From assembly GCA_041690595.1 (NCBI GenBank), contig JAWLHB010000022.1, forward strand, positions 62,001-126,000: DNA of 64,000 nt. Reading direction: 5' to 3'. The position numbers were made by a program, and so were the translations under genes. How positions within the stretch are numbered: position 1 is the stretch's first letter; every line of letters starts with the position of its first letter. The stretch comes from Lentisphaeria bacterium. Lineage in GTDB: Bacteria > Verrucomicrobiota > Lentisphaeria > JABSQK01 > JAWLHB01. Shown here piece by piece: positions 13,032 through 45,699 of the stretch. The notes below the pieces were generated by a model. It saw nothing but the letters and a program-made list of their open reading frames with translations, was not told the DNA's origin and did not search any database.

Positions 13032-13760
13032 ATGCTGTGTTCCACCCGAAAGCTTCGTCCCTTTACCCTGATCGAACTGCTGGTCGTCGTCGCCATCATA
13101 TCCGTTCTGGCGTCGATGCTACTGCCTGCCTTGAGTCAGGCGCGCTTCACGGCCCGGAAAGCGAAGTGCATGAACAACATGAAGCAGTACGGCCTGGCAC
13201 TGGCGATGTACATGGACGATTTCGGTCCCAACTGCATGTCCGGCTGGCAGCACGGCCCCGGCAACTACTGGATGCCTAACAACCGCGATACGATGTGGAC
13301 CTATTCCTGGAATTGGGACGAAGTGGCGGAGCTGTACTTGGGCAGCAAGAGTCACCCAACCCTCTGGTGTCCAACTCAGTCCAAGGCGGCTTTTGGCGCC
13401 AATACGGGCTACAACCTCACCTTCAGCGTCGGCCAGACAAACACCTCGGTAAACTATCCGGGAGCCGGATGGCTCGTCTACAACCCGGCGCAGAAGCGGT
13501 ACGGTCATGGCGTCGACTCCGGCTTGAACGCCATTGCCAGTCGCGACAACGATGATCTTCAAGGCGCGGCGGTGCTTGTGGACACCACGCACCATCCGAC
13601 GGATATCTGGTACGAGCGCGGGAAAGTGTCACATCAGCAAGGTGGAATCGCGGCAGGGCAGAACGCTCTGCTGTGGGACGGCCGGGTGATCTGGCGCAGC
13701 CTGTACCACGGGCAGACGTACTGGGCAAGCGGCGAACTCTTCCCCATCGTGGATCGCTAA
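13032..13760 (+). CDS. Prepilin-type N-terminal cleavage/methylation domain protein (DUF1559-like)
   Basis: [33 protein letters not shown]...CMNNMKQ; C-terminal H...[17 protein letters not shown] before ATG 13032. Confidence 0.9.
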
Positions 13761-34203: not shown

Positions 34204-34233
34204 AACCTACTATCAGACCGACCGGTCGGTCAA
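34204..34233 (-). promoter_or_regulatory. tetR promoter overlapped by a perfect 16-bp palindromic operator
   Basis: TTGACC (34233-34228)-N18-TAGGTT (34209-34204); palindrome GACCGACCGGTCGGTC at 34216-34231. Confidence 0.7.
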
Positions 34234-34365
34234 TATGAAGGAAAACGAATTTATTAATGGACCCAATTGTTCCGCGCGCACCGCGGGGATTGAAATGCGA
34301 CCAGATTGGTCGTATTTTATGGGTCTCACTCTCACCATTGTGAACTTCATCGGAGATCCTGCATC

Positions 34366-34791
34366 ATGTATCCAGAAGAGATTGTCGCCCCCATGAGGGA
34401 AGAAGCTGAAACCATCGGCTGCACCCAACTGCGCTCCGCCGCGGAAGTGGAAGCTGCGCTTGGGCAAGAATCCGGAACGGCATTCGTGCTGGTAAACAGT
34501 GTTTGCGGCTGCGCGGCAGCAAATGCCCGTCCTGGTCTGCGCCTGGCGCTTGAACATGGTGACCACAAGCCCGAGCGCCTCTACACAGTCTTTGCGGGAC
34601 AGGACAGTGAGGCTGTTCAGGCCGCCCGCCGCCATTTCGCGGGATATCCGCCGTCGTCGCCCTCCATGGCGTTGCTCAAGGACGGTCATGTCGTGGCCAT
34701 GCTTCAGCGCCTGGATATCGAGGGCTATTCCGCCCAACAGGTGGCCATGAAGCTGATCGAAGCGTTCAACGAGCATTGCAGCGCCGACTAG
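34366..34791 (+). CDS. BrxA/BrxB-family bacilliredoxin
   Basis: MYPEEIVAPMREE, VNSVCGCAAANARPG (CGC motif), TVFAGQD, PPSSPSMALLKDG; start moved to ATG 34366. Confidence 0.92.
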   Translation: MYPEEIVAPMREEAETIGCTQLRSAAEVEAALGQESGTAFVLVNSVCGCAAANARPGLRLALEHGDHKPERLYTVFAGQDSEAVQAARRHFAGYPPSSPSMALLKDGHVVAMLQRLDIEGYSAQQVAMKLIEAFNEHCSAD

Positions 34792-34875
34792 GCTGGTTTG
34801 CCGTGGGAGCTGTTTTTATTCTATAGTGATGGCATGCAGGAATGGCGGCGAACGTGCGCCATCTGGAGGTGAACC

Positions 34876-35184
34876 ATGATTGAAGACAAGACCAGTATGG
34901 ATGAAAACGAGATCAACTTGGCCCTTGCTCGTCTCGATGGCTGGGAGCGGGATGGTGTATCCATCCGTAAAGCTTTCGTATTCGAGAACTTCAAGGAGAT
35001 CAACCGCTTTCTGCCCTACTTCACGAAGACCATTGTAGCGCTCAATCACCACCCGGATTTCGCCTTTGAAGGAGGGAAGAAGACGGTGCTGGTAACTACC
35101 ACCACCCACAGTGCCGGAGGCCTTACGCGCGCGGACTTCGATCTGGCAACCGCGTTGAATGCCTGGAAGGAAATGAGTTCCTGA
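34876..35184 (+). CDS. Pterin-4-alpha-carbinolamine dehydratase family protein
   Basis: LDGW, F.FENF, NHHPD, TTHSAGGLT..DFDLA. Confidence 0.88.
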   Translation: MIEDKTSMDENEINLALARLDGWERDGVSIRKAFVFENFKEINRFLPYFTKTIVALNHHPDFAFEGGKKTVLVTTTTHSAGGLTRADFDLATALNAWKEMSS

Positions 35185-35286
35185 AACGCCTGGCGCCCTG
35201 GCGCCCCTCACAATCCCCGACCCGACGCGGGCTGCGCATGGCTGGCCCACCCTCAGCCGTGTGTCCCCACTTGAGCCCGCGTTCAT

Positions 35287-35329
35287 ATGGCGCTGCCGGC
35301 CCCGCATCCGGCGGCGCCATTCTTCTATT
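35287..35329. terminator. Terminator-like hairpin between convergent genes
   Basis: ATGGCGCTGCCGG / CCGGCGGCGCCAT stem then TCTTCTATT. Confidence 0.6.
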
Positions 35330-35348: not shown

Positions 35349-36746
35349 TTACTTGTCTGCTTCGGTCACAGTGCCCAGCTTGAGGAGGCGGTACTGGAGC
35401 GTCGAGCGTGGCATGCCGAGCAACTCCGCGGCACGCGCCAGATTGCCGCCCGCCCTGTGCAGCGCCCAGTCCACCGCCGTGGCTTCCACGGTCTGCAGCA
35501 GGTGCTGGAGGTCGATCTGCTCCTGCTGATCGAGATGAACGTCGACCAGTGGGTCTTCATGTGGAGCAGGATCCAGCGGCGGCAGATCGTCGGATTCAAT
35601 GGCATCACCGTTATTCAAGACCATTGCCTGTTCGATGACATGTTCCAGCTCACGCACATTGCCGGGCCAGTGATAGGTCTGCATGCGCCGCAGCGCATCC
35701 GCGCTCAGTTCCGGCGCATCACGTCCCTGCCGGCGGGCAAAGCGAGCCAGGAAATGCGTAGTCAGCGGCAGAATGTCCTCGATGCGCTCGCGTAACGGCG
35801 GCAAATAGATCGGGATGACGCTGAGCCGGTAATACACGTCTTCACGAAAATTCTTCTCCTGAACCAGTTCCCGCAGATTTCGTTTGGTAGCGGCAATGAG
35901 GCGAATGTTCACGGGGATTGGTTCAGCGCCGCCCACCCGCTCAATGTGGTATTCCTGCAGCACGCGCAGGAGTTTCACCTGGATATGCAGGGGGATGTCG
36001 TCGATGTCGTCCAGGAAGAGGGTGCCGCCATTTGCCAGTTCAAATCGGCCATGGCGGCGCTTGTTTGCACCTGTAAAGGCACCCGCTTCATGACCGAACA
36101 GCTCCGCCTCGACCAGCGCCTCCGGAAGGGCTGCGCACGAGACGGCCACAAAGGGGCCCTTGGCGCGATGGCTGCACTCGTGAATCAGCCGAGCAACGAC
36201 CTCCTTGCCGGTGCCGGAGCGTCCTTCGATCAGAACCGTGCTGTCGCTGTTCGCCACCGCATGGATCTTGCGCTTGATGCCGCGGATCGATTCGGAATGA
36301 CCCACCAGCTGGACATTGGACTTCACCGCCGCCAATTGCTCACGCAGCACCTGGTTCTCGCGTTCCAGCCCCGTGTAGCGGCGCACCCGGTCGAGCTTCA
36401 GTACCAGCTCCTCCGCGCTGAAGGGCTTCTGCATGTAATCGAACGCCCCCAGCTTCATCGCTTCCACGGCCGACTCCACCGAGCCATGGGCGGTCATCAC
36501 CATCACCGCCTGATTGGCCTTCTGTTCGCGTAGTTGGCGCAGGAAGGTGATGCCATCCATCCCCGGCATGCGAATGTCCGTGATGATGACATCGTAATTG
36601 CGCCGCGGCAAGTAGCTCAGCGCTTCAGCCGGATTGCCGGCCAGGTCAACGCGATAGCCGGCGTCTTCAAGTGCGTCACGCAAGACTTCGCACTTGATCG
36701 GCTCGTCATCCACGATCAACAGGGATGGGCGGTCGTCCTTCGGCAT
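35349..36746 (-). CDS. Sigma-54-dependent NtrC-family response regulator
   Basis: Receiver (IVDDE, TDIRMPGMDG), Walker A GRSGTGKE, GAFTGA, Walker B LFLDDI, WPGNVREL, Fis-type HTH. Confidence 0.96.
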   Translation of the reverse strand: MPKDDRPSLLIVDDEPIKCEVLRDALEDAGYRVDLAGNPAEALSYLPRRNYDVIITDIRMPGMDGITFLRQLREQKANQAVMVMTAHGSVESAVEAMKLGAFDYMQKPFSAEELVLKLDRVRRYTGLERENQVLREQLAAVKSNVQLVGHSESIRGIKRKIHAVANSDSTVLIEGRSGTGKEVVARLIHECSHRAKGPFVAVSCAALPEALVEAELFGHEAGAFTGANKRRHGRFELANGGTLFLDDIDDIPLHIQVKLLRVLQEYHIERVGGAEPIPVNIRLIAATKRNLRELVQEKNFREDVYYRLSVIPIYLPPLRERIEDILPLTTHFLARFARRQGRDAPELSADALRRMQTYHWPGNVRELEHVIEQAMVLNNGDAIESDDLPPLDPAPHEDPLVDVHLDQQEQIDLQHLLQTVEATAVDWALHRAGGNLARAAELLGMPRSTLQYRLLKLGTVTEADK

Positions 36747-36773
36747 AATGGCTCCTCGGCAGCAAAAGTAAGG

Positions 36774-38234
36774 TCAACTACGATGAGAACGTTCGTCCGT
36801 ATCGAGAGAAAGGGGCAGCGAGATTCGAAAGTGAGCGCCGGACAAGCGCGATCCGCTCCGCTCCAGTACCAGTTCTCCTCCATTCTGCTCGATCAGATCG
36901 CGCGATACAGTGAGTCCGAGACCCGTGCCTTTGCCGGGATCCTTGGATGAGAAAAAGGGGCGAAAGACGCGCTCGCGGTCTGCTTCCGCAATGCCACTGC
37001 CGGAATCCTCCACATGAATATCCACCCACTCGTCACGAACCATGCCCCAGATGCAGATTCGTCGCTCCGCGCTTTCGCCGCAGGCATCCGCGGCATTGAG
37101 TAAAAGATTGAGCAAGGCTTGCTCCACAAGCGGCCGCGCACATCTGCAGCGATTTGCCAGCGACGTCTCCGCGTCCAACTGAATACCATATCTCTCCAGC
37201 CGGGGGCGCGTCAACTCTATCATGTCGCTGATAAGATCGTGCAGCGCGCAATCGCTGATATCCGGCGTCTTGCCGGGAGCACGGGCAAAGACGAGCATCT
37301 GCCGCATAACCCGCTCGATGCGGCGCAAGCCGTCGTGAATAAGCTGCACGTAGCGAGCTTGACGCGATTCGGCCGGCATGTGTGGCTCCAATTGGCGGCA
37401 GCATTCCATGATGCCGTCGAGGGGATTGAGGATCTCATGGGCAAGGCCGGCGGACATTTCTCCAAGCGTGGCCAGCCGCTCCGCCGACACCATGCGCTTC
37501 TGGGCGGAGAGGTTTTCCGCCTTGAGCCGGCGCAGATCGGTCACCATCTGCTGAAAAGCAAGGGAGAGCTGCCGGATCTCGGCGGTGCCCGTGGCGGGGA
37601 CTTCCGAGGGGCGTAGGTTTCCCCCCGGTACCCGGCGGGCGACGGTGGCCAGTTCTACCAGTGGTTGCCCGATGTGCCAGGAGATCAGCTGCGCCACCAA
37701 CAGGGATGCCGCCAGCAGCGTACCCAGCACCAGCAGCATCGCCATCGAGAAGTAGCGTTGCTGATGCAGCACCCGCTTCTGGGACATCCCCAGGTGAAGG
37801 TGCCCCAATTCGCCATCCAGCACGGGCACCGCCACGTCCAGAATGTAGTCATCCCGAGTCCGGTACTGCATGAGTGGTTCATCATGCGTCAGGCAATACT
37901 GCAGCAGTTCCCGGGGAAAGCCGCTATCAAAGGTGTGCGCGATGATTCGGCGCTCCTGGAGCATGATGAACGCATACCGGATCTCCTTGTCGGCTAGCGA
38001 GGAACGCTGCAGCACGTTGTAGGCTGCATAAGCATCGTCGAGCAGCACCGGCTCGACTGCGTCCACCGCCAGGCTGTTCGCCAGGCTGCGCGCGCGAATC
38101 ACCAGATCCTCCCTGCTCGACCGCGCCAACCACCAGCCTGCGCTCAGGGTGATACTGAGAAAGAAACCCACGACCACGGCGATCGCAAGCCAGGAGATGA
38201 TCGTCTGCAGCGTGACATTGCGCAGGTATTTCAT
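36774..38234 (-). CDS. Membrane sensor histidine kinase with HAMP domain
   Basis: Two TM segments, HAMP, H-box GLAHEILNPL, N-box LLNLLLNA, DSGSGI, GKGTGLGL. Confidence 0.95.
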   Translation of the reverse strand: MKYLRNVTLQTIISWLAIAVVVGFFLSITLSAGWWLARSSREDLVIRARSLANSLAVDAVEPVLLDDAYAAYNVLQRSSLADKEIRYAFIMLQERRIIAHTFDSGFPRELLQYCLTHDEPLMQYRTRDDYILDVAVPVLDGELGHLHLGMSQKRVLHQQRYFSMAMLLVLGTLLAASLLVAQLISWHIGQPLVELATVARRVPGGNLRPSEVPATGTAEIRQLSLAFQQMVTDLRRLKAENLSAQKRMVSAERLATLGEMSAGLAHEILNPLDGIMECCRQLEPHMPAESRQARYVQLIHDGLRRIERVMRQMLVFARAPGKTPDISDCALHDLISDMIELTRPRLERYGIQLDAETSLANRCRCARPLVEQALLNLLLNAADACGESAERRICIWGMVRDEWVDIHVEDSGSGIAEADRERVFRPFFSSKDPGKGTGLGLTVSRDLIEQNGGELVLERSGSRLSGAHFRISLPLSLDTDERSHRS

Positions 38235-39214
38235 CACTGGGCCGGCACGTTGGGAACAAGAAGACCTGCATCTCGATAGACCTTCACCATCGGCTCGTAG
38301 GCCCGCGCTTCCGGCAGCAGAAAGCGGGCAATTCCGAAGTCGGCCAGCAGTTGCTGCCCGTGGGGCGTCTCATGCATCGTCAGCAGTGCCTGCTGGAGTT
38401 TGCGCTTCAGTGATGGCGAAAGGCTTGCCGGGACCAGCACCGGTGGCGCGGCAAAGGTCGCGCTGCTGGCCACGATCCTCAGCTGGCTCTCCAGCCGTGG
38501 CTGCTGCCGATATAGACTCCGCAAGACCATGGAACTGACCGCCGCCCCGTCGGCATAGCCGTTGGTCACTGCCCGCACCGACAGATCGTGAGAGCCGGTA
38601 AGCATCGTCTGTGAGAAGAAGCTGTCCGGCGTGTAGCCAAGCTGACGAAGCATGGCGCGCGGCAGCACGAATCCGGTAGCCGACTCTCGGTCGGTGTAGG
38701 CGAAGCGATCGCCCTCGAGGTCGGTCAGATGATAATAGGGACTTTTCGCCGAAACGATGATGTCGCAGCGGTAGGTAACGTCTGACAGGAGTTCGGGCAT
38801 GGCGAGAATCTCCACTCGCGGGTCGCTGTAAAGCAGTGCATAGATGCCCGGACAGACCAGCGCCGCATCCACATCCGCCTGCTGCAGATCGAGGCGGGTG
38901 TTCTCATAGTCCGATCGAATGATCAACACCCCGTCCATCTCCAGAAGCTCAGCCAGGTGCTCGACGATCTTCCGATGCTGAAGGAAGATATTGGCGGGAC
39001 TGTACATGGTCGCCACGGCGAAACGGAGTTGCCGGATCGTTCGTTCGCGCCCGCTGCCCAGCGGCACCCGGTTCTCCAGATCCAGCCTGGGGCCGGCAAA
39101 GGTCAGTTCACCAATGACAATCGATCCCAGAAAAAGACAGACCACCAGCAGCCCGAACCCCCACTTCAGGTAGGAAGTAAAAGGCTGCCAGCGCTTGCGG
39201 TCGTGTTTTCGCAT
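38234..39214 (-). CDS. PhnD/phosphonate-binding-fold periplasmic protein, AioX/ArrX-like sensor accessory
   Basis: N-terminal anchor; DLEGDRFAYTDRESATGFVLP, TGSHDLSVRAV..G.ADGAAV; Cys in VDAALVCPGIY; abuts the kinase gene; no ABC permease or ATPase nearby. Confidence 0.85.
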   Translation of the reverse strand: MRKHDRKRWQPFTSYLKWGFGLLVVCLFLGSIVIGELTFAGPRLDLENRVPLGSGRERTIRQLRFAVATMYSPANIFLQHRKIVEHLAELLEMDGVLIIRSDYENTRLDLQQADVDAALVCPGIYALLYSDPRVEILAMPELLSDVTYRCDIIVSAKSPYYHLTDLEGDRFAYTDRESATGFVLPRAMLRQLGYTPDSFFSQTMLTGSHDLSVRAVTNGYADGAAVSSMVLRSLYRQQPRLESQLRIVASSATFAAPPVLVPASLSPSLKRKLQQALLTMHETPHGQQLLADFGIARFLLPEARAYEPMVKVYRDAGLLVPNVPAQ

Positions 39215-39334
39215 TCGCGCAACTCCGACGCGTACAGTGTGAAGGCATGCCCTGTCCAGGAAGACGGGGCAGTGGTGATACAGTCTGGAATATGGTGCCT
39301 GTCGGCCCCGAATTCAAGCTGAAAACCGGACAGC

Positions 39335-39369
39335 AAAAAAAGGCCAGGCGGAGGGGATCCGCCTGGCCT
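39335..39369 (-). terminator. Rho-independent terminator after the porin gene
   Basis: AGGCCAGGCGGA / TCCGCCTGGCCT stem; A-run at 39335-39341 gives a U-tract on the minus strand. Confidence 0.85.
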
Positions 39370-39409
39370 TGCCCTTGTTCTGCAACCGCTGCAAACCAGC
39401 GTGCTGAAG

Positions 39410-41413
39410 TTAGAACTGCATCGTCAACCCGAGGGTGATGGCATGGGCCGTGTACTGCCCGGTCTCACCATAATTCTCGTCGTTGTAATGCCAGTAGTCG
39501 TACGCAACACGACCACTCAGATTATCCGTGAACTGATGCGTCAGACCGACCGATGCGCCATGACGATCGTAGGCAACCGCCTTCTCCAGGCCGCCCGCAT
39601 CCGCCAGTTCCTCCTGGTCGTTGTTCGCCACTTCATAGAGGTAGCGCGCATCGACGCTGGTCTTGTCGGTGATCGCGTAGTTCACGCTGGTCAGGAAGCT
39701 GTACACATCCCCATCCCAGGTCGCCGCCATCGGATTCTCGAGGGAATCGAGAATCGTCCGCGACTCGTGCCAAGTGAACTGACCGTTGAAGAAGAGGCGC
39801 GCGGAAGGCATGACCGTCGCCCCGACCGTGTAGTTGTTGGAGTCCACATTGGCGCCGTGAACACGATCCGCCGGGCCGATATCACTGGTCTCGGTATAGT
39901 AGTCTTGCTTGACCATCGTATACCGCCAGTAGGAACGGAGCCAGTTGGTATGCTGCAGCGTCAGGCTTACCATCAACTCGTGCGCGTTGGTGTCCAGCGA
40001 GTCCATGAAGGCGCTATAACCCGAGGCCGTGTCGACGTCGTGGGTATAGATGTTGGAGACCTCGCCGTACTGGTACCAGGCGCTCAGCGACATGCTGCTG
40101 AAGGGGGACGTGGTGAAGCCGGCGCGGTAGCGCTGCTCGTCACGATCCGTATCCGTATCCCGGTCCAGGTCAACAGTACCGGTATCCGACTCGTACTCCA
40201 GCTCATCCAGATCATACGACGTCTGCACCCAAGTGCCACGCACATACATCTTGGTATGGGGTACCCCGCTGTAGCTGAGTTCGAGTTCTTCCTTCAGCGA
40301 GACCTTACGCTCGTAGGCGTCGATGCTCACCGGTTGGCTACTGCTGGGCGACACATGCATCACTTCTGACGAATCGTCCCGGTTTCCCAACTCCAGCTCA
40401 ACGCCGCCACTGATCATGAAGTCGTTCCAGGGACCAGCCATCGCCGCCAGGTTGAAGACGTGCGAGGTTTGTGTAAGATCCGAGTCGATCATGTAATCGT
40501 TATGGGCATGGCTGCCCGTGAACGGCAGCTGGCGCATCTCGAAGCCGACTTCGCCTTCCGTCCGGACATACAGATACCCGCCGGAGATCAGCAGCCAGTC
40601 ACGCAGCCACTTTTCCGCGGTCAGCGCATTGGAGAACTGGTCGAAGTCGTAACCCTCTTCGAAGGTCTGACCAATCGGGTCCGTGCCACCAACGACCTCG
40701 GCCGGAATCATCAGATTGCGGAAGGTGTCGCTGCTGTAGATCTCGTAGCGCATGCTGTCCTGCAGCGCCCAGTCCGATCCCTGATGGGCGATATCGAGTT
40801 TGAAGATGTGAACGTCTTCGTCGATATCCTTGTACGTCGGATAGATCTTCTTGTTGTCGTCGAGTTGCTGGTATTGGCGCAGGGACTTGGTGCCATCCTT
40901 GTACTGGTATTCGTAACCCAGCACGATGGTGGTGTTGTCCTGCGGCTTGAAGCCCAGGTCGAAGTACAGACGACCGATATCCATGTCGAATGTCGTCGCC
41001 CTCTGATACGCATCCTCGATGCCTTCATAGTACCAGCCGGTATTGTCATAATACTTGCGGAACTGCTCGAACCCGGCGTTGACGAAGATGTTCCCATCGG
41101 GGGATACCCATTCGCCCTGGATCTCATAATCGCCATTACCGGCGATGAATCTGCCTTCGAGCCGCAGATCACCGGCAATCGCGTCGCTGTTGTCGTACAG
41201 CACCGCCGACTGCAGGCCGCCGATGAAGCCGTCGTCACGCCACGTGTGCTCCCGGAAGAGGGATTCGTTCCCGCTAACGGTTGCATAGCTGATGACGGGC
41301 GAGAGGGTGAGTCGATAATTGGCCGTGGATTCCTCATCCTGAGAAATCGCCACATTTGACACGAGTGTCAGGCCCAGAATCGCCGCAAAAAGTCTACTGA
41401 TTGTGCTATTCAT
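39410..41413 (-). CDS. Outer-membrane beta-barrel, MtrB/PioB-like porin
   Basis: ATG 41413 with AGGAG RBS, signal peptide, 667 aa of alternating Tyr/Gly/Asp-rich strands, C-terminal Phe (GLTMQF), directly downstream of a multiheme cytochrome. Confidence 0.8.
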   Translation of the reverse strand: MNSTISRLFAAILGLTLVSNVAISQDEESTANYRLTLSPVISYATVSGNESLFREHTWRDDGFIGGLQSAVLYDNSDAIAGDLRLEGRFIAGNGDYEIQGEWVSPDGNIFVNAGFEQFRKYYDNTGWYYEGIEDAYQRATTFDMDIGRLYFDLGFKPQDNTTIVLGYEYQYKDGTKSLRQYQQLDDNKKIYPTYKDIDEDVHIFKLDIAHQGSDWALQDSMRYEIYSSDTFRNLMIPAEVVGGTDPIGQTFEEGYDFDQFSNALTAEKWLRDWLLISGGYLYVRTEGEVGFEMRQLPFTGSHAHNDYMIDSDLTQTSHVFNLAAMAGPWNDFMISGGVELELGNRDDSSEVMHVSPSSSQPVSIDAYERKVSLKEELELSYSGVPHTKMYVRGTWVQTSYDLDELEYESDTGTVDLDRDTDTDRDEQRYRAGFTTSPFSSMSLSAWYQYGEVSNIYTHDVDTASGYSAFMDSLDTNAHELMVSLTLQHTNWLRSYWRYTMVKQDYYTETSDIGPADRVHGANVDSNNYTVGATVMPSARLFFNGQFTWHESRTILDSLENPMAATWDGDVYSFLTSVNYAITDKTSVDARYLYEVANNDQEELADAGGLEKAVAYDRHGASVGLTHQFTDNLSGRVAYDYWHYNDENYGETGQYTAHAITLGLTMQF

Positions 41414-41427
41414 CTGTCTTCTCCTGA

Positions 41428-42243
41428 TCAGTAGCGCAGGTGGGCGTTGGTATTGGAACCATGAACTGCCGTATGGCAGCCGGCCGACCAGCAGGTGCCT
41501 CTGGTCAGGAAGGAGCTGTGATTGCGCCCGCCGATCAGCAGATCCGCATGATCCGCCTGCGGCTGAGAATGGCACTTCAGGCACAACGAATTGTCCGCCT
41601 GAACCAGCATCTTCTTGTTGATGGAGCCATGAACCGCGTGGCAGGAGGTGCAACCATCGCGCAGCGCTTCATGGTCGAAGACGTGGGAACGCGCCTGCTC
41701 GCGATGGCACGAGGCGCACGTATCATTGGTGCGGGCCATCAGCATCGAGCCCGGCTTCTTGATGTCGCTGCCATGCGGATCGTGGCAGTCGGCGCAGCTC
41801 ATCTTCCCTTCAGGGACTGGATGACGGTACGGAAGTTGAAACTCGGCCTTCTTGTCCAAGTGACAACGGTAGCAGGCGTCTGACGAATCACCAGGATTGA
41901 CAATAAAGACGCCGCGGCCGCCGCCGGCTTCCACGTGCTTGCTGCCTGGCCCGTGACAGGCTTCGCAGCCGGCAAGTCCGCCAGGCGCATCTTCCACATG
42001 AACACGCGCATGCACGGAGAATGCAAATTTCTTCACCTGATCTTCATGGCAGAGCTCGCATTCCTGATTCCCGACGAAGGTCGCACCCGGGATCTCAGGT
42101 GGTATGACGACTGAATTGTGAAGGGACGAGCAGGCTACGAATAGCCCGATCGCCGCACCCATTAGCGCGAGTGGTACGGCTTTGCCGCGCAAAATGCGCG
42201 TCGCCCGCTCTCGCAGTGTTGTTGCCTTTGCCGAGTCTCTCAC
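41428..42243 (-). CDS. MtrA/DmsE-like multiheme c-type cytochrome, predicted lipoprotein
   Basis: CELCH, CEACH, CYRCH, CADCH, CASCH, CTSCH, CLKCH and CWSAGCH; CEACHGPGSKH, HPVPEGKMSCADCHDPHGS and VHGSN are MtrA-like; lipobox-like LFVAC. Confidence 0.9.
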   Translation of the reverse strand: MRDSAKATTLRERATRILRGKAVPLALMGAAIGLFVACSSLHNSVVIPPEIPGATFVGNQECELCHEDQVKKFAFSVHARVHVEDAPGGLAGCEACHGPGSKHVEAGGGRGVFIVNPGDSSDACYRCHLDKKAEFQLPYRHPVPEGKMSCADCHDPHGSDIKKPGSMLMARTNDTCASCHREQARSHVFDHEALRDGCTSCHAVHGSINKKMLVQADNSLCLKCHSQPQADHADLLIGGRNHSSFLTRGTCWSAGCHTAVHGSNTNAHLRY

Positions 42244-42317
42244 TGATTCTGTCTCCCCTGGCGCACGTTGGTTTTCGTGTTGGTGATTCCAGACAATGCT
42301 GGTCTGGACACAATCTT

Positions 42318-42333
42318 AGCAGCGTTCGTGCCA
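42318..42333 (-). promoter_or_regulatory. Sigma-54 (-24/-12) promoter of the cytochrome-porin operon
   Basis: Minus strand TGGCACG-AACG-CTGCT versus consensus TGGCACG-N4-TTGCW (one mismatch). Confidence 0.85.
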
Positions 42334-42363
42334 ATTGCCGCGATTGACTGGTAACCTCGGTTA

Positions 42364-42376
42364 AATCAAGGACTTA
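42364..42376. promoter_or_regulatory. IHF binding site
   Basis: AATCAAGGACTTA matches WATCAA-N4-TTR exactly and lies between the sigma-54 promoter and the palindromes. Confidence 0.7.
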
Positions 42377-42409
42377 TGGATTCTTGTGGCTTTTCTTCCC
42401 CGGCTGCGG

Positions 42410-42467
42410 GCGAAGGTTTTCGGGTGATTTCGCGGAAGGCTCCGCAGATCACCGCGCAACCTTGCGC
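42410..42467. promoter_or_regulatory. Candidate upstream activator sequence: three phased 14-bp palindromes
   Basis: GCGAAGGTTTTCGG (42410), GCGGAAGGCTCCGC (42432), GCGCAACCTTGCGC (42454); 22-bp period. Confidence 0.7.
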
Positions 42468-42469
42468 AC

Positions 42470-42498
42470 TTGACAAGCTCCACCGCGGACCGTAGCCT
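42470..42498 (+). promoter_or_regulatory. Putative sigma-70 promoter for 42559
   Basis: TTGACA-N17-TAGCCT. Confidence 0.6.
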
Positions 42499-42558
42499 TT
42501 ATTCCGACGCTGGCAAAACACTCAGTCGACCGGCCCATCACGACGTAAAGGAGCGCAG

Positions 42559-44757
42559 ATGAAGATCGAGGTCAAGCCGTATCGTGGACGTACCCTTGTA
42601 TGGATCGACGGGCAACCGCGCAATTTGACCATGTATTCGCCGCCCGCCATGGGACGAGTCGATTTTGCCCCCGTCTGGCGGGGTTGTGTCGATCGTTTCG
42701 TGCGGCACGACATGGACGTCTACCTCATGAGCGTCCCCCAGCAATGGGAGAAGAAGTTCACGCTCAATCCCTTCTGGGCTGGCGACACGATCACCAGTGA
42801 CCCGATGTACATCGGTTCCACGAAGCTCGATGAAGGGCCGGAGTACGTGCTCGCCAAAGACCCCGAAGCCTTGCTCCTGCTCCGCTACGTCCCGCGCCCC
42901 CCCCAGGACTGGTATCCGCTCCATCAGGACGAGTGCGTTGTCGGTGCGGACGGCAAGCGCGAGAACTATCCGTCCCTTGCCTCCCCCAGCTACCGGCGGC
43001 AGGCTGGCGAACTCTGTGCGGCGTACATCCACTACTGTGAATCGCGTCCATGGGCCGAACGCCTCCTCGGCTATATCAACTACCACCTCTGCGAAGGCAC
43101 CCACGGGCCTCTCTCGGGCGGATGGCTCTACGACTACTCCCCCGCCATGACGGCCCGCTGGCGCCAGTACCTGTGCGACAAGTACGGCGACGACAGCACC
43201 CTGCGCGAGGCCCATGGCGACCCCAACCTCTCGCTGGAAACCGTCGAAGTTCCGCGCGATCCGTTGCTGGGGCCGCTTCGGGAAGTCGCCGCCATTCCCT
43301 ACTGGCAGGATGCCGTGGCCAACCAGGCCCGCCGTGACTACCTGCTCCTCACCCGCGATCTCTACCACGATCTGCTGCGCGCCATCTGCATTGCCTCGCA
43401 TGCTGCCTCACCGGCAGAGCGCCTGCACATACACGATACCTTCAAGCTGCCGATGCAGGGCTGGTCCAACCATGGCTTCTTCAGCATGGATCAGCCATGG
43501 CCCATCATCTACGCCGAGAATCTCTCCGGCTCCGGTAACATGGATGTGCTCGACCTCCTCGATACGCCTGGCCTCGACGGCGTCTGCACCCCCTATGATT
43601 ATCAGGTGCGCGGCGCCGGCGGGGTCTTCGAGCCCGAAGGGATCGCCGACTCCGTCTCCTTGCTGCCGAACAAGCTTTTCCTGGTCGAGCAGGACATCCG
43701 CACCTATGCCGGCGATGTCCACAACTGCGGGATGATGCGCGATCTGAACGAGTTCGAGGCCGTCACCTGGCGTGATCTGGCCACCTCGATCACCCGCGGT
43801 TTCATGAACTACCTCACCGATCACAACGCGGACTACTACTGCGATCCGGCCATGCATCCCATTGTCGAGCGACAGATGCGTGTCCTCTCCGCCTCCGCCC
43901 AATGGCCCCACGCCACCGTCCCCGGCATTGCCATGATCCTCGACGAGCAGGCCATCCTCGAGACCAGCGGCAGCGGCCACATTCTCAACGAGGCCGTCAT
44001 GTGGGAAGAGAAGATTGGCATCTCCCGATGCGGCGTTCCCTACCGCATCTATCTGCTCGACGATCTGCGGGCCGGTCATGTCCCCGACCACGCCGTCTAC
44101 TATTTCCCCAACCTCTACCGGGTCGACGAGGCTCGGCTGGAGTTGCTCCGCCGGACCGTGCTGCGAGATGGGCGCCTCGTCGTCTGGGGGCCAGGCAGCG
44201 GCATCAGCGATGGTCGCACCATCGCCGCGGAACATGCCACCCGCCTCACCGGCTTTCAGTTCTCCTTTCAGACGGCCAACTATCCGCGCCGCGTCCAGAT
44301 CAGCGACTTCACCCATCCCATCACCAGCGATCTTCAAGCCGACACCATCTATGGCAGCCCCATCGCCTATGGCCCGATTCTCTATCCGACCGATGGTATT
44401 CCCCTCGGCTGGGCATGGTCGAAGTTCGGCGGTGACGATGTCGGGCTCGCCTATCGCGAGAGCGACAGCTACCGTGCGGTCTTCACCACGGCAGCGCCAC
44501 TACCTGCCTGCCTCTGGCGAAGTCTTGCCCGCTTTGCCGGCGCGCACATCTGGTGCGAAAGCAACGATGTCCTCATGGCGGACAGCAGCCTTGTCGCTCT
44601 GCACACGCTGAAGGCGGAGACCAAGCTTCTCGCCCTGCCCGGCGACTATCGCGTCACCGACCTGCTGACCGGACAAAAGATTGCCGACCGTACGCGCGAG
44701 ATCAGCTTCACCATGCATGCCCCCGCCACCGCCGTCTTCCAGTTGGAGCAAGTGTGA
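42559..44757 (+). CDS. Cytoplasmic glycoside-hydrolase-like protein (GH42/beta-galactosidase-like)
   Basis: AAGGAG RBS; DYSPAMTARWRQYLCDKYG..TLREAHG resembles a GH42 motif; C-terminal trimerisation-like domain; no signal peptide. Confidence 0.6.
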   Translation: MKIEVKPYRGRTLVWIDGQPRNLTMYSPPAMGRVDFAPVWRGCVDRFVRHDMDVYLMSVPQQWEKKFTLNPFWAGDTITSDPMYIGSTKLDEGPEYVLAKDPEALLLLRYVPRPPQDWYPLHQDECVVGADGKRENYPSLASPSYRRQAGELCAAYIHYCESRPWAERLLGYINYHLCEGTHGPLSGGWLYDYSPAMTARWRQYLCDKYGDDSTLREAHGDPNLSLETVEVPRDPLLGPLREVAAIPYWQDAVANQARRDYLLLTRDLYHDLLRAICIASHAASPAERLHIHDTFKLPMQGWSNHGFFSMDQPWPIIYAENLSGSGNMDVLDLLDTPGLDGVCTPYDYQVRGAGGVFEPEGIADSVSLLPNKLFLVEQDIRTYAGDVHNCGMMRDLNEFEAVTWRDLATSITRGFMNYLTDHNADYYCDPAMHPIVERQMRVLSASAQWPHATVPGIAMILDEQAILETSGSGHILNEAVMWEEKIGISRCGVPYRIYLLDDLRAGHVPDHAVYYFPNLYRVDEARLELLRRTVLRDGRLVVWGPGSGISDGRTIAAEHATRLTGFQFSFQTANYPRRVQISDFTHPITSDLQADTIYGSPIAYGPILYPTDGIPLGWAWSKFGGDDVGLAYRESDSYRAVFTTAAPLPACLWRSLARFAGAHIWCESNDVLMADSSLVALHTLKAETKLLALPGDYRVTDLLTGQKIADRTREISFTMHAPATAVFQLEQV

Positions 44758-44772
44758 GCTTCCGCTCACCTT

Positions 44773-45699
44773 TTATGGCGTCAGTGCCGTCACCCGGAAG
44801 GATTCGAGGATCACGCTGTACATGACAAGGCGGGCCTCGAAAGTTCCGGGCGGCGGCACCAACTCGACGCTCTCCCCCTCCACCGTCGGCCGGAGCAGAA
44901 AACGATCGCCGAGCCGCTTGCCTTCCGCGTCATAATAGGTCAGCGACAGCCAGCCGTTTGTGGTCTGTCGCTGACCACGCGCGTAAAGCTGGTAGGTGAC
45001 CGTCTCACGCAGCGGAAAGAAGGGCGATACGCCGCCATAGCCACTCTTGAATACCGTTTTGCCATCCGGGCGCGTATAGAGCCTGCCATCCCGCGCCGGC
45101 CGCCAACCGCTGTAGTTGAGTTCCCCGTACTCGAACTCCGGATTGACATTGATCGTCCCGTCGTCGATCGATACGATCTCCAGATTGTCGATATAGAGCG
45201 GCGAGTTTCTTGGCGAGAATCGGATCTTCACCGCTGCTGTCTCCGGTGGGGGCTGGAAGGCAAGGCTGTAGGCGTACCAGTCGCTGGTGAGAATCGATCC
45301 GCCGAAGCCCCGGCCACTGCGTTGGATCTGCTCGCCATCGGAATCGAAGAAGAGAAGCTCGTACATGGGCAGGAAGCGCCCGTAGGACTGGAGCATTTCC
45401 ATGTGCGCCCGGTCGTTGCTTTCGACGGTATCCGATCGGTCGGTTCGAGCCAGAAAAGTCAGCTTGTACGTTGTCTCCGGCGTGACCGGCATGGCCTTCA
45501 TCGTGGACACCCTCAGTTCCGCCGGCAGTGCCAGGCACATTCCGCCGTCTTCAGTCTGAACCGTGGTGACGCCTTCGACAACACTCTCCAGATACGCCTC
45601 TGGTTGCTCCGTATCGAAGCTCTGCGTATGGATGGGATTCGCGGGCAGCATCAGGCTGCCGCACAGCCCCGTCAGTAGCAACATCGTGCGGATACTCAT
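44773..45699 (-). CDS. Secreted protein with carbohydrate-binding-module-like beta-sandwiches
   Basis: Signal peptide; VTPETTYKLTFLAR, W..YSLAF.PP, LYIDNLEI, NPEFE motifs. Confidence 0.6.
   Translation of the reverse strand: MSIRTMLLLTGLCGSLMLPANPIHTQSFDTEQPEAYLESVVEGVTTVQTEDGGMCLALPAELRVSTMKAMPVTPETTYKLTFLARTDRSDTVESNDRAHMEMLQSYGRFLPMYELLFFDSDGEQIQRSGRGFGGSILTSDWYAYSLAFQPPPETAAVKIRFSPRNSPLYIDNLEIVSIDDGTINVNPEFEYGELNYSGWRPARDGRLYTRPDGKTVFKSGYGGVSPFFPLRETVTYQLYARGQRQTTNGWLSLTYYDAEGKRLGDRFLLRPTVEGESVELVPPPGTFEARLVMYSVILESFRVTALTP

Follow-up and report, generated by a model that had tools for sequence, protein, structure and literature searches.

A divergent porin-cytochrome conduit and an AioX/ArrX-like sensor triad with an altered pocket in a Lentisphaeria bacterium: a probable link of the sensor to cytochrome genes

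The closest described counterpart of the conduit considered here is a gene cluster of the Verrucomicrobia, which in the passages of He et al. (2017, mSphere; PMC5615132) devoted to it combines a porin of at least 20 strands with a periplasmic cytochrome with eight haem sites; the same passages report homologues in Opitutus terrae and others and propose a role of the cluster in electron transfer to humic substances. In the Geobacter system OmaB/OmbB/OmcB, too, as cited in the same source, a periplasmic multihaem cytochrome and a porin-like protein make up a conduit through the outer membrane; this system is set beside ours by description only. The MtrAB pair of Shewanella has been solved as part of the Mtr complex (6R2Q). 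On the regulatory side, the AioXSR, ArxXSR and ArrXSR systems, in the portions of PMC5908839 that deal with them, have the gene order X-S-R, a PhnD-fold binding protein with a subfamily cysteine, and an AtoC/NtrC-type activator of RpoN promoters. Here we analyse a locus where relatives of both kinds of system are neighbours, in a 64,000-nucleotide (nt) stretch of a Lentisphaeria bacterium contig (JAWLHB010000022.1), below called the window; all positions without a contig name refer to this whole stretch. The locus consists of two neighbouring, separate transcription units, a conduit operon and a sensor triad, and the sensor looks to be wired to cytochrome machinery, probably not via the adjacent promoter. 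Verrucomicrobia are abundant polysaccharide degraders in soils, lakes and peat, and almost nothing is known about the regulation of extracellular electron transfer outside Shewanella and Geobacter.

All five genes lie on the minus strand and occupy positions 35349–42243. In the direction of transcription, the genes for an octahaem c-type cytochrome (41428–42243) and an outer-membrane barrel (39410–41413) are followed by an intrinsic terminator on the same strand (39340–39370; from 39370 to 39340, a 13-bp GC-rich stem and then a T run), which separates the two units. Then come the genes for a binding protein (38234–39214), a sensor histidine kinase (36774–38237) and a sigma-54 activator (35349–36746), and a GC-rich hairpin directly after the activator gene (35287–35320) is probably the end of the sensor operon. 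The five genes, the palindromes, the IHF site, the sigma-54 motif and the terminator had all been described in a first-pass annotation by a model that saw the sequence only, and re-reading confirmed that they are real. The same annotation stated that there is no molybdoenzyme in the window, which is correct; the genome does encode an ArrA-like enzyme on another contig. It also remarked that it knew of no described system with this coupling. The conduit is already in print (PMC5615132); no description of a coupling between such a sensor and a conduit was found in the literature searched. One paper, PMC13194489, has both "porin-cytochrome" and "sigma-54" in its text, but in the passages concerned it merely lists mutated regulators.

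The cytochrome is a 271-amino-acid (aa) protein related to MtrA and DmsE, probably a lipoprotein, with seven CXXCH motifs and one CX4CH motif. Its match to the DmsE decahaem family model TIGR03508 (E = 9e-46, 156 bits) is under the 192-bit cut-off. Of the solved structures, chain A of the Mtr complex 6R2Q is the closest (E = 1.8e-24), in line with the initial description of the protein as MtrA-like; the match spans residues 119–265, that is, the C-terminal half only, and corresponds to MtrA residues 178–325. All eight haem motifs are invariant in 51 aligned cytochromes, and so is Cys38 at the end of the signal peptide, which, judged by eye from the sequence, is probably the lipoprotein signal. 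Eight haems are also found in OmaB of Geobacter. Unlike OmaB/OmbB/OmcB, the window locus has no outer-surface cytochrome gene; moreover, no further multihaem open reading frame (ORF), and no outer-surface decahaem partner resembling MtrC or OmcA, is present in the 64-kb window. Elsewhere in the genome, contig C23 (88617–90992) encodes a 792-aa protein that joins 16 CXXCH motifs to a membrane domain of the cytochrome b561 type and could be another inner-membrane entry point for electrons.

The barrel ORF formally extends over 39410–41653 and overlaps the cytochrome gene. The gene is taken to start at the methionine at 41413, which is followed by a signal peptide and stands 14 nt away from the cytochrome gene; it thus extends over 39410–41413 and encodes 667 aa. 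A Pfam and NCBIfam search assigns the protein to no family at E up to 0.01, Pfam MtrB_PioB included. The AlphaFold2 model built on a 17-sequence alignment (predicted local distance difference test, pLDDT, 80.6; predicted template-modelling score, pTM, 0.74) has 26 strands, and its top Foldseek match is MtrB (6r2q_B, TM 0.70/0.71, 13% identity), all other matches being 22-strand TonB-dependent transporters with TM about 0.42. Thus the MtrB-like character of the barrel, another early claim, holds at the level of the fold: the protein is modelled as a 26-strand MtrB fold and falls outside the MtrB/PioB family by sequence. Prediction of a complex between barrel residues 26–667 and cytochrome residues 38–271, which had been suggested as a check, yields a score of 0.87, compared with 0.00 for the best of three controls. 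Three runs share at least 74% of contacts with a partner pLDDT of at least 71, and the contacts fall on alternate residues of the strands, all round the barrel. The mark applied was reached by 116 of 157 solved complexes and by 2 of 215 mismatched pairs. As the related MtrAB complex is solved, the pass may reflect likeness and is no proof of binding; the cytochrome is predicted to be sheathed by the barrel. The pair resembles MtrAB in the barrel fold, in the homology of the C-terminal half of the cytochrome to MtrA and in the predicted position of the cytochrome inside the barrel, and differs from it in the low identity of the barrel, the number of haems (eight, not ten), the lipoprotein-type cysteine and the absence of an MtrC-like neighbour.

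Homologues of the barrel are few. A collection of 5.8 billion proteins yields only 18 non-self matches at E up to 1e-3, which are at most 33% identical when aligned locally, the full-length ones about 30%. Each of the 18 contains the single-haem PSCyt1 domain (PF07635), which is N-terminal in the 16 that were aligned; such fused proteins are about 800 aa long, and the separate octahaem gene is still found upstream. The window barrel and its two same-order relatives have no PSCyt1 fusion. The barrel is present in 18 of 401 sampled genomes of the window's phylum, this genome included. The octahaem gene is directly upstream of the barrel gene in 11 of 12 fetched loci. A scan of a genome collection with barrel alignment A1 (the wider alignment A2 being too diverse) gave 80 loci, almost all under Verrucomicrobiota titles; 77 of them contain the cytochrome, and the remaining three have no more than 402 nt between the barrel start and the contig end. 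With a large porin gene beside that of an eight-haem periplasmic cytochrome, the conduit belongs to the family of PMC5615132, where the passages on the cluster describe this arrangement. It is a divergent member, about 30% identical in the barrel to any other and lacking the fusion; a sigma-54 promoter and an adjacent sensor triad are features of the window copy only.

The relatives' clusters often contain, in addition, genes for a NapC/NirT-like hexahaem protein (about 500 aa), a c554-like tetrahaem protein and a single-haem protein; ResB/CcsA maturation genes are also added and, in one case, a Rieske/cytochrome b complex. The regulators standing beside the pair in other lineages are an OmpR-type system or cyclic-nucleotide (cNMP)-binding proteins. 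Matches to the window activator occur in eight of the 80 conduit loci and cover the receiver domain only; weak matches to the kinase occur in three. In many Limisphaerales-type loci (including L072, L079, L087, L103, L111, L113, L114, L117 and L128) the conserved motif CGGAATTTGAYWCGCC precedes the cytochrome start by about 255–280 nt and may be either a regulatory site or a portion of an upstream gene.

The triad is encoded downstream of the terminator. The binding protein has the PhnD fold (PF12974, E = 5e-53) and a membrane anchor, read by eye from the translation; the kinase has HAMP, HisKA and HATPase domains; the NtrC-type activator combines a receiver, a Sigma54_activat (AAA+) domain, with GAFTGA visible in the translation, and HTH_8. 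Among solved structures, the binding protein is closest to ArrX (E = 8e-29) and AioX (E = 6e-18), with PtxB and PhnD behind them, in agreement with the first-pass identification of an AioX-like triad. Judged by these relatives, the X-S-R order and the sigma-54 activator, the triad can be assigned to the AioX/ArxX/ArrX three-component family. However, its ligand pocket is altered. The description of the pocket in Badilla et al. (2018; PMC5908839) names Tyr88, Cys106, Tyr131, Ser161, Ser163, His192 and Asp210. At these seven positions the window protein has Tyr, Cys, Tyr, Ser, Thr, His and Ser, five being identical; thus the hallmark cysteine is kept, Ser163 is replaced by threonine and Asp210 by serine, and the equivalent of Asn162 is alanine.

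The binding protein is single-copy in this genome and is found in eight of the 401 phylum genomes at E up to 1e-10. In one of the same class (G223) the triad is syntenic, the activator is 56% identical, and TGGCACcatacCTGCA follows, and then FeS (iron-sulphur), NrfD and TtrA-like genes. A metagenome scan with the single binding protein as the query gave no matches, and the scan with the binding-protein alignment gave 80 loci. The kinase gene is next in 64 of them, and the activator is complete in 29 (43–62% identical) and truncated in three. A molybdoenzyme is visible in 31 (15 ArrA-like, 12 Ttr-like and four other); these counts are minima, since many metagenome contigs are short. The family normally stands beside, and switches on, Arr/Arx-like or Ttr-like molybdoenzymes. 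The window triad differs from it in the altered pocket, in having no adjacent molybdoenzyme gene, and in the predicted sites, which precede cytochrome and haem operons. In many molybdoenzyme-coupled triads (L131, L146, L154) the first gene of the target operon encodes a secreted protein of 420–450 aa with a coiled-coil-like N-terminus.

A predicted site of the family can be read from the promoters of its targets. A sigma-54 motif (at least 9 of 11) is found 240–400 nt after the activator gene in 19 of 22 full-triad loci. As a loose regular expression for the palindrome gave 244 matches and was uninformative, we used instead a symmetric weight matrix from 49 sites in 17 of these 19 loci, having dropped L150 (a duplicate of L148) and L143 (different). 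The family consensus is TGACGAAWWTTCGTCA, a predicted palindrome of 16 bp, and the 17 loci have three sites at about −195, −174 and −92. Compared with its counterparts in related triads, the window activator shows 53–60% identity and an unchanged recognition helix (PRSTLQY); among 20 activator C-termini of this genome that were compared, its helix is the only one of the family kind.

The genome contains 49 palindrome matches of at least 14 bits, and for three of them a sigma-54-like motif in the right orientation lies no more than 300 nt away; all three rank among the four best in the genome. The site C6:145871 (20.5 bits) precedes the gene for a 2-oxoacid:ferredoxin oxidoreductase. The site C9:13697 (19.2 bits), accompanied by a 10.4-bit site at a distance of 21 nt, lies between a hexahaem/tetrahaem operon and a divergent kinase-activator pair. 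In this region (C9:11289–16816) the operon encodes NapC/NirT-like hexahaem and c554-like tetrahaem proteins behind the sigma-54-like motif TGGCACacgccTTGCT, and the divergent second kinase and sigma-54 activator have a sigma-54-like motif of their own; a repeat search of this intergenic region found no inverted repeat. The site C46:45037 (19.1 bits) precedes hemA, a lipoprotein gene and a fused ResB-CcsA cytochrome c maturation gene. Since the recognition helix is shared, we infer from the sequences that the window activator binds the C9, C46 and C6 sites. In the C46 region (39839–45052) GCGAAAAATTGCGCGG repeats are seen by eye between the sigma-54-like motif and the palindrome.

In two metagenome lineages, triads of this kind stand next to porin-cytochrome genes; canonical activator sites are present in one of the two. 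In L150 (near-duplicate L148) a second sigma-54 motif has the canonical triple at −192, −171 and −91 (20.8, 19.2 and 9.6 bits) and is followed by a decahaem gene of the DmsE family, whose 219 bits exceed the cut-off. The next gene encodes a 708-aa protein that is remotely barrel-like (hhalign probability 81%, E = 1.2e-5), and a cupredoxin-like gene, FeS and NrfD follow. The other lineage is L208, a 3261-nt contig that carries the last 88 residues of a barrel (40% identical), followed by a hexahaem gene (47% identical to that of C9), a tetrahaem gene (53%) and then the binding protein (33%). In L160, palindromes and a promoter precede a multihaem gene cut by the contig end. L150 (4222–11177) and L148 each hold the triad with two sigma-54 promoters, both with canonical palindromes, and also a receiver-HTH_8 protein without an AAA+ domain.

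The pocket varies along with the target. The equivalent of Asp210 is aspartate in 70 of the 77 metagenome relatives that cover it, including all 31 with a visible molybdoenzyme. The seven relatives without it are L139, L141, L148, L149, L150, L159 and L160, and where a target is visible among these seven (L148/L150 and L160), it is a cytochrome only. Multihaem genes are also present in two Asp-bearing loci, L144 and L206. In the FastTree phylogeny of 77 sequences (four of 81, shorter than 220 aa, were dropped) the seven proteins without aspartate cluster together.

Since the pocket changes, the two metagenome lineages and the palindrome-bearing promoters of this genome agree, the idea of a sensor-to-cytochrome link gains support. 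The account that we favour combines a separate conduit operon with a sensor re-used for cytochrome control, and taken as a whole we consider it slightly more probable than not. In the family at large, molybdoenzymes are switched on via three TGACGAAWWTTCGTCA copies upstream of a sigma-54 promoter. With a remodelled ligand pocket, the sensor would have been re-used for cytochrome control, its activator presumably acting at the family palindromes before the C9 hexahaem/tetrahaem, the C46 hemA/maturation and the C6 oxidoreductase promoters. The conduit operon itself would be sigma-54-dependent, and the octahaem lipoprotein cytochrome, sitting in its 26-strand MtrB-fold barrel, would carry electrons across the outer membrane. 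We are more reserved about a broader version, to which we give somewhat less than an even chance: that a branch of AioX/ArxX-type sensors switched, via a remodelled pocket, from arsenic- or sulphur-oxyanion respiratory molybdoenzymes to sigma-54-dependent porin-cytochrome systems, the regulon being split in this genome over the conduit locus and the C9, C46 and C6 operons.

If this is true, extracellular electron transfer would be ligand-inducible in Verrucomicrobiota and other uncultured bacteria. A sensor that switches on a cytochrome pathway would make the inducing signal, the conditions of humic or metal respiration and the direction of electron flow testable; the family palindrome makes the regulons of such sensors easy to read from metagenome sequences, and a pocket change that tracks the type of target is a starting point for finding the ligand.

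Several observations weigh against the favoured account. The binding protein is absent from all 12 fetched loci and all 80 genome-collection loci found from the conduit side (92 in total, none of them with the triad), so that the five genes do not form a conserved module, and the co-conservation of the regulators with the cytochrome-porin pair, on which the first-pass annotation had made its proposal depend, is not seen. In the 260 nt upstream of the conduit promoter the family palindrome reaches 2.3 bits at best, and in the whole 64 kb there is one match with at most three mismatches, which lies inside the activator gene and is at chance level. The matrix itself was seeded by eye and forced symmetric, and at least two further activators of the genome could not be aligned at the C-terminus, their recognition helices thus being outside the comparison. 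In the tree, the window protein forms a long separate branch, sister to a 36-member clade (support 0.95); as it branches apart from the other proteins without aspartate, the pocket argument rests on about two independent losses. Finally, the genome keeps, on contig C94, an ArrA-like enzyme, that is, the usual target of the family.

The original proposal had the sensor drive the conduit rather than a molybdoenzyme. A sigma-54-type −24/−12 promoter, TGGCACgaacgCTGC, is found at 42319–42333 on the minus strand, 75 nt before the GTG start. Upstream of it, the IHF consensus match AATCAAGGACTTA (42364–42376, plus strand) lies between the promoter and the dyads. These are the palindrome TGCGCAAggTTGCGCG (42453–42468, minus strand), a candidate activator site 135 nt upstream of the −24 element, and a nested dyad found by the repeat search (42413–42463; GGTGAT...ATCACC around TGCGGA...TCCGCG), whose 16-nt arms, 42413–42428 and 42448–42463, are 75% complementary. 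The consensus strings used for matching are those which we take to be typical of IHF and sigma-54. The IHF string, WATCAANNNNTTR, is matched once in the 64 kb, with 0.32 matches expected. The sigma-54 motif alone is weak evidence, since the window has eight such motifs with six expected, and shuffled upstream regions do as well in 64 of 1680 cases; it is the combination and spacing of the elements that make the promoter convincing. The genome has two rpoN genes and two genes of the HU/IHF family. A visual likeness of the window dyad to a sequence ahead of the ArrA-like gene on C94 was dropped, as C94 is not among the best 25 of 8635 genome-wide alignments.

One reading of this layout, direct control, would have the adjacent activator bind the dyads at 42413–42468 and, together with IHF and sigma-54, switch on the conduit when the ligand is sensed. 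The two units are indeed adjacent and on the same strand, the order of dyads, IHF site and sigma-54 promoter is the textbook one, and L150 and L208 demonstrate that triads of this family can serve porin-cytochrome genes. Moreover, no comparable sigma-54 motif precedes the orthologous cytochrome genes in other loci, hence the motif is specific to the copy beside the triad. Yet the recognition helix is that of the family and the family palindrome is missing here: the sites at the canonical positions of the conduit promoter score −12.8, −2.2 and 2.3 bits, which provides no support, the best score anywhere in the window being 12.7 bits, at 13597. The nested dyad is unlike the family palindrome. 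In addition, the targets in relatives (19 of 22 loci) follow the activator gene instead of preceding that of the binding protein. Finally, one dyad is shared with a promoter that has a kinase and an activator of its own. The palindrome TGCGCAA-N1-4-TTGCGC has six sites in the genome, two of them with a sigma-54-like motif 125–135 nt downstream, namely the conduit promoter and C53:24170, which precedes a gspE/F/G type II secretion operon; in both promoter regions the TGCGCAA...TTGCGCA palindrome stands at a similar distance. The operon of this region (C53:24170–38994; gspE, gspF and gspG-like pseudopilin genes) ends with its own kinase and sigma-54 activator.

On balance, we regard direct control as unlikely. 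Since the five genes are not conserved together and no predicted activator site is found in the adjacent promoter, the wiring proposed at first remains unproven; what stands of it is a likely link from the sensor to cytochromes in place of a molybdoenzyme. Under the favoured account with separate units, the conduit promoter, having different dyads, would probably be served by another of about 20 sigma-54 activators of the genome or, alternatively, by the activator of the triad binding in a non-canonical manner. The shared TGCGCAA palindrome may point to the conduit's own activator, but as yet it is no more than a lead.

The direction of electron flow is a separate question. The conduit might work inward, taking electrons from Fe(II) or reduced humics, like MtoAB and PioAB, which are not known to have an MtrC partner. 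The absence of an outer-surface multihaem cytochrome gene beside the pair in the window would fit this, as would the single-haem PSCyt1 domain fused to the barrel in most relatives. However, the NapC/NirT-type quinol dehydrogenases and the bc-type complex of the relatives fit either direction, nothing in the sequence fixes it, and He et al., in the passages on the cluster (PMC5615132), favour export to humic substances. Inward flow appears doubtful to us.

Contig C94 (3994 bp, cut at both ends) encodes a molybdopterin subunit that resembles ArrA and has a Tat signal; an FeS subunit and the first part of an NrfD-like protein are encoded there too. On the ArrA model (cut-off 1600) the molybdenum subunit reaches 1119 bits, and it matches solved ArrA with E = 3e-295; it is about 50% identical to the enzymes beside related triads, and ArrA and ArxA are not distinguishable in this case. 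That the window triad is an ordinary ArxXSR/ArrXSR triad with this enzyme as the real target, its adjacency to the conduit being a rearrangement without regulatory meaning, is improbable: the 31 relatives with a visible molybdoenzyme all fit such a pattern, the C94 subunit is ArrA-like and about as close to triad-linked enzymes as stated above, and the hallmark pocket cysteine is kept, but the pocket lacks the Asp and the Asn kept by every molybdoenzyme-coupled relative, the 306 nt available upstream before the contig is cut contain no family palindrome (best 3.3 bits), and the best palindromes of the genome precede cytochrome-related operons. By itself, C94 suggests an enzyme of arsenate or arsenite respiration in what otherwise resembles the genome of a glycan degrader.

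Next to the conduit promoter, the minus-strand ORF 42538–43401 and, beyond the sensor operon, two Arg-rich ORFs in 34213–35307 on the minus strand are probably spurious. The former overlaps the divergent neighbour of the conduit, a plus-strand ORF of 732 aa (42559–44757) with a third-position GC content of 0.80 and neither a signal peptide nor a Pfam match.

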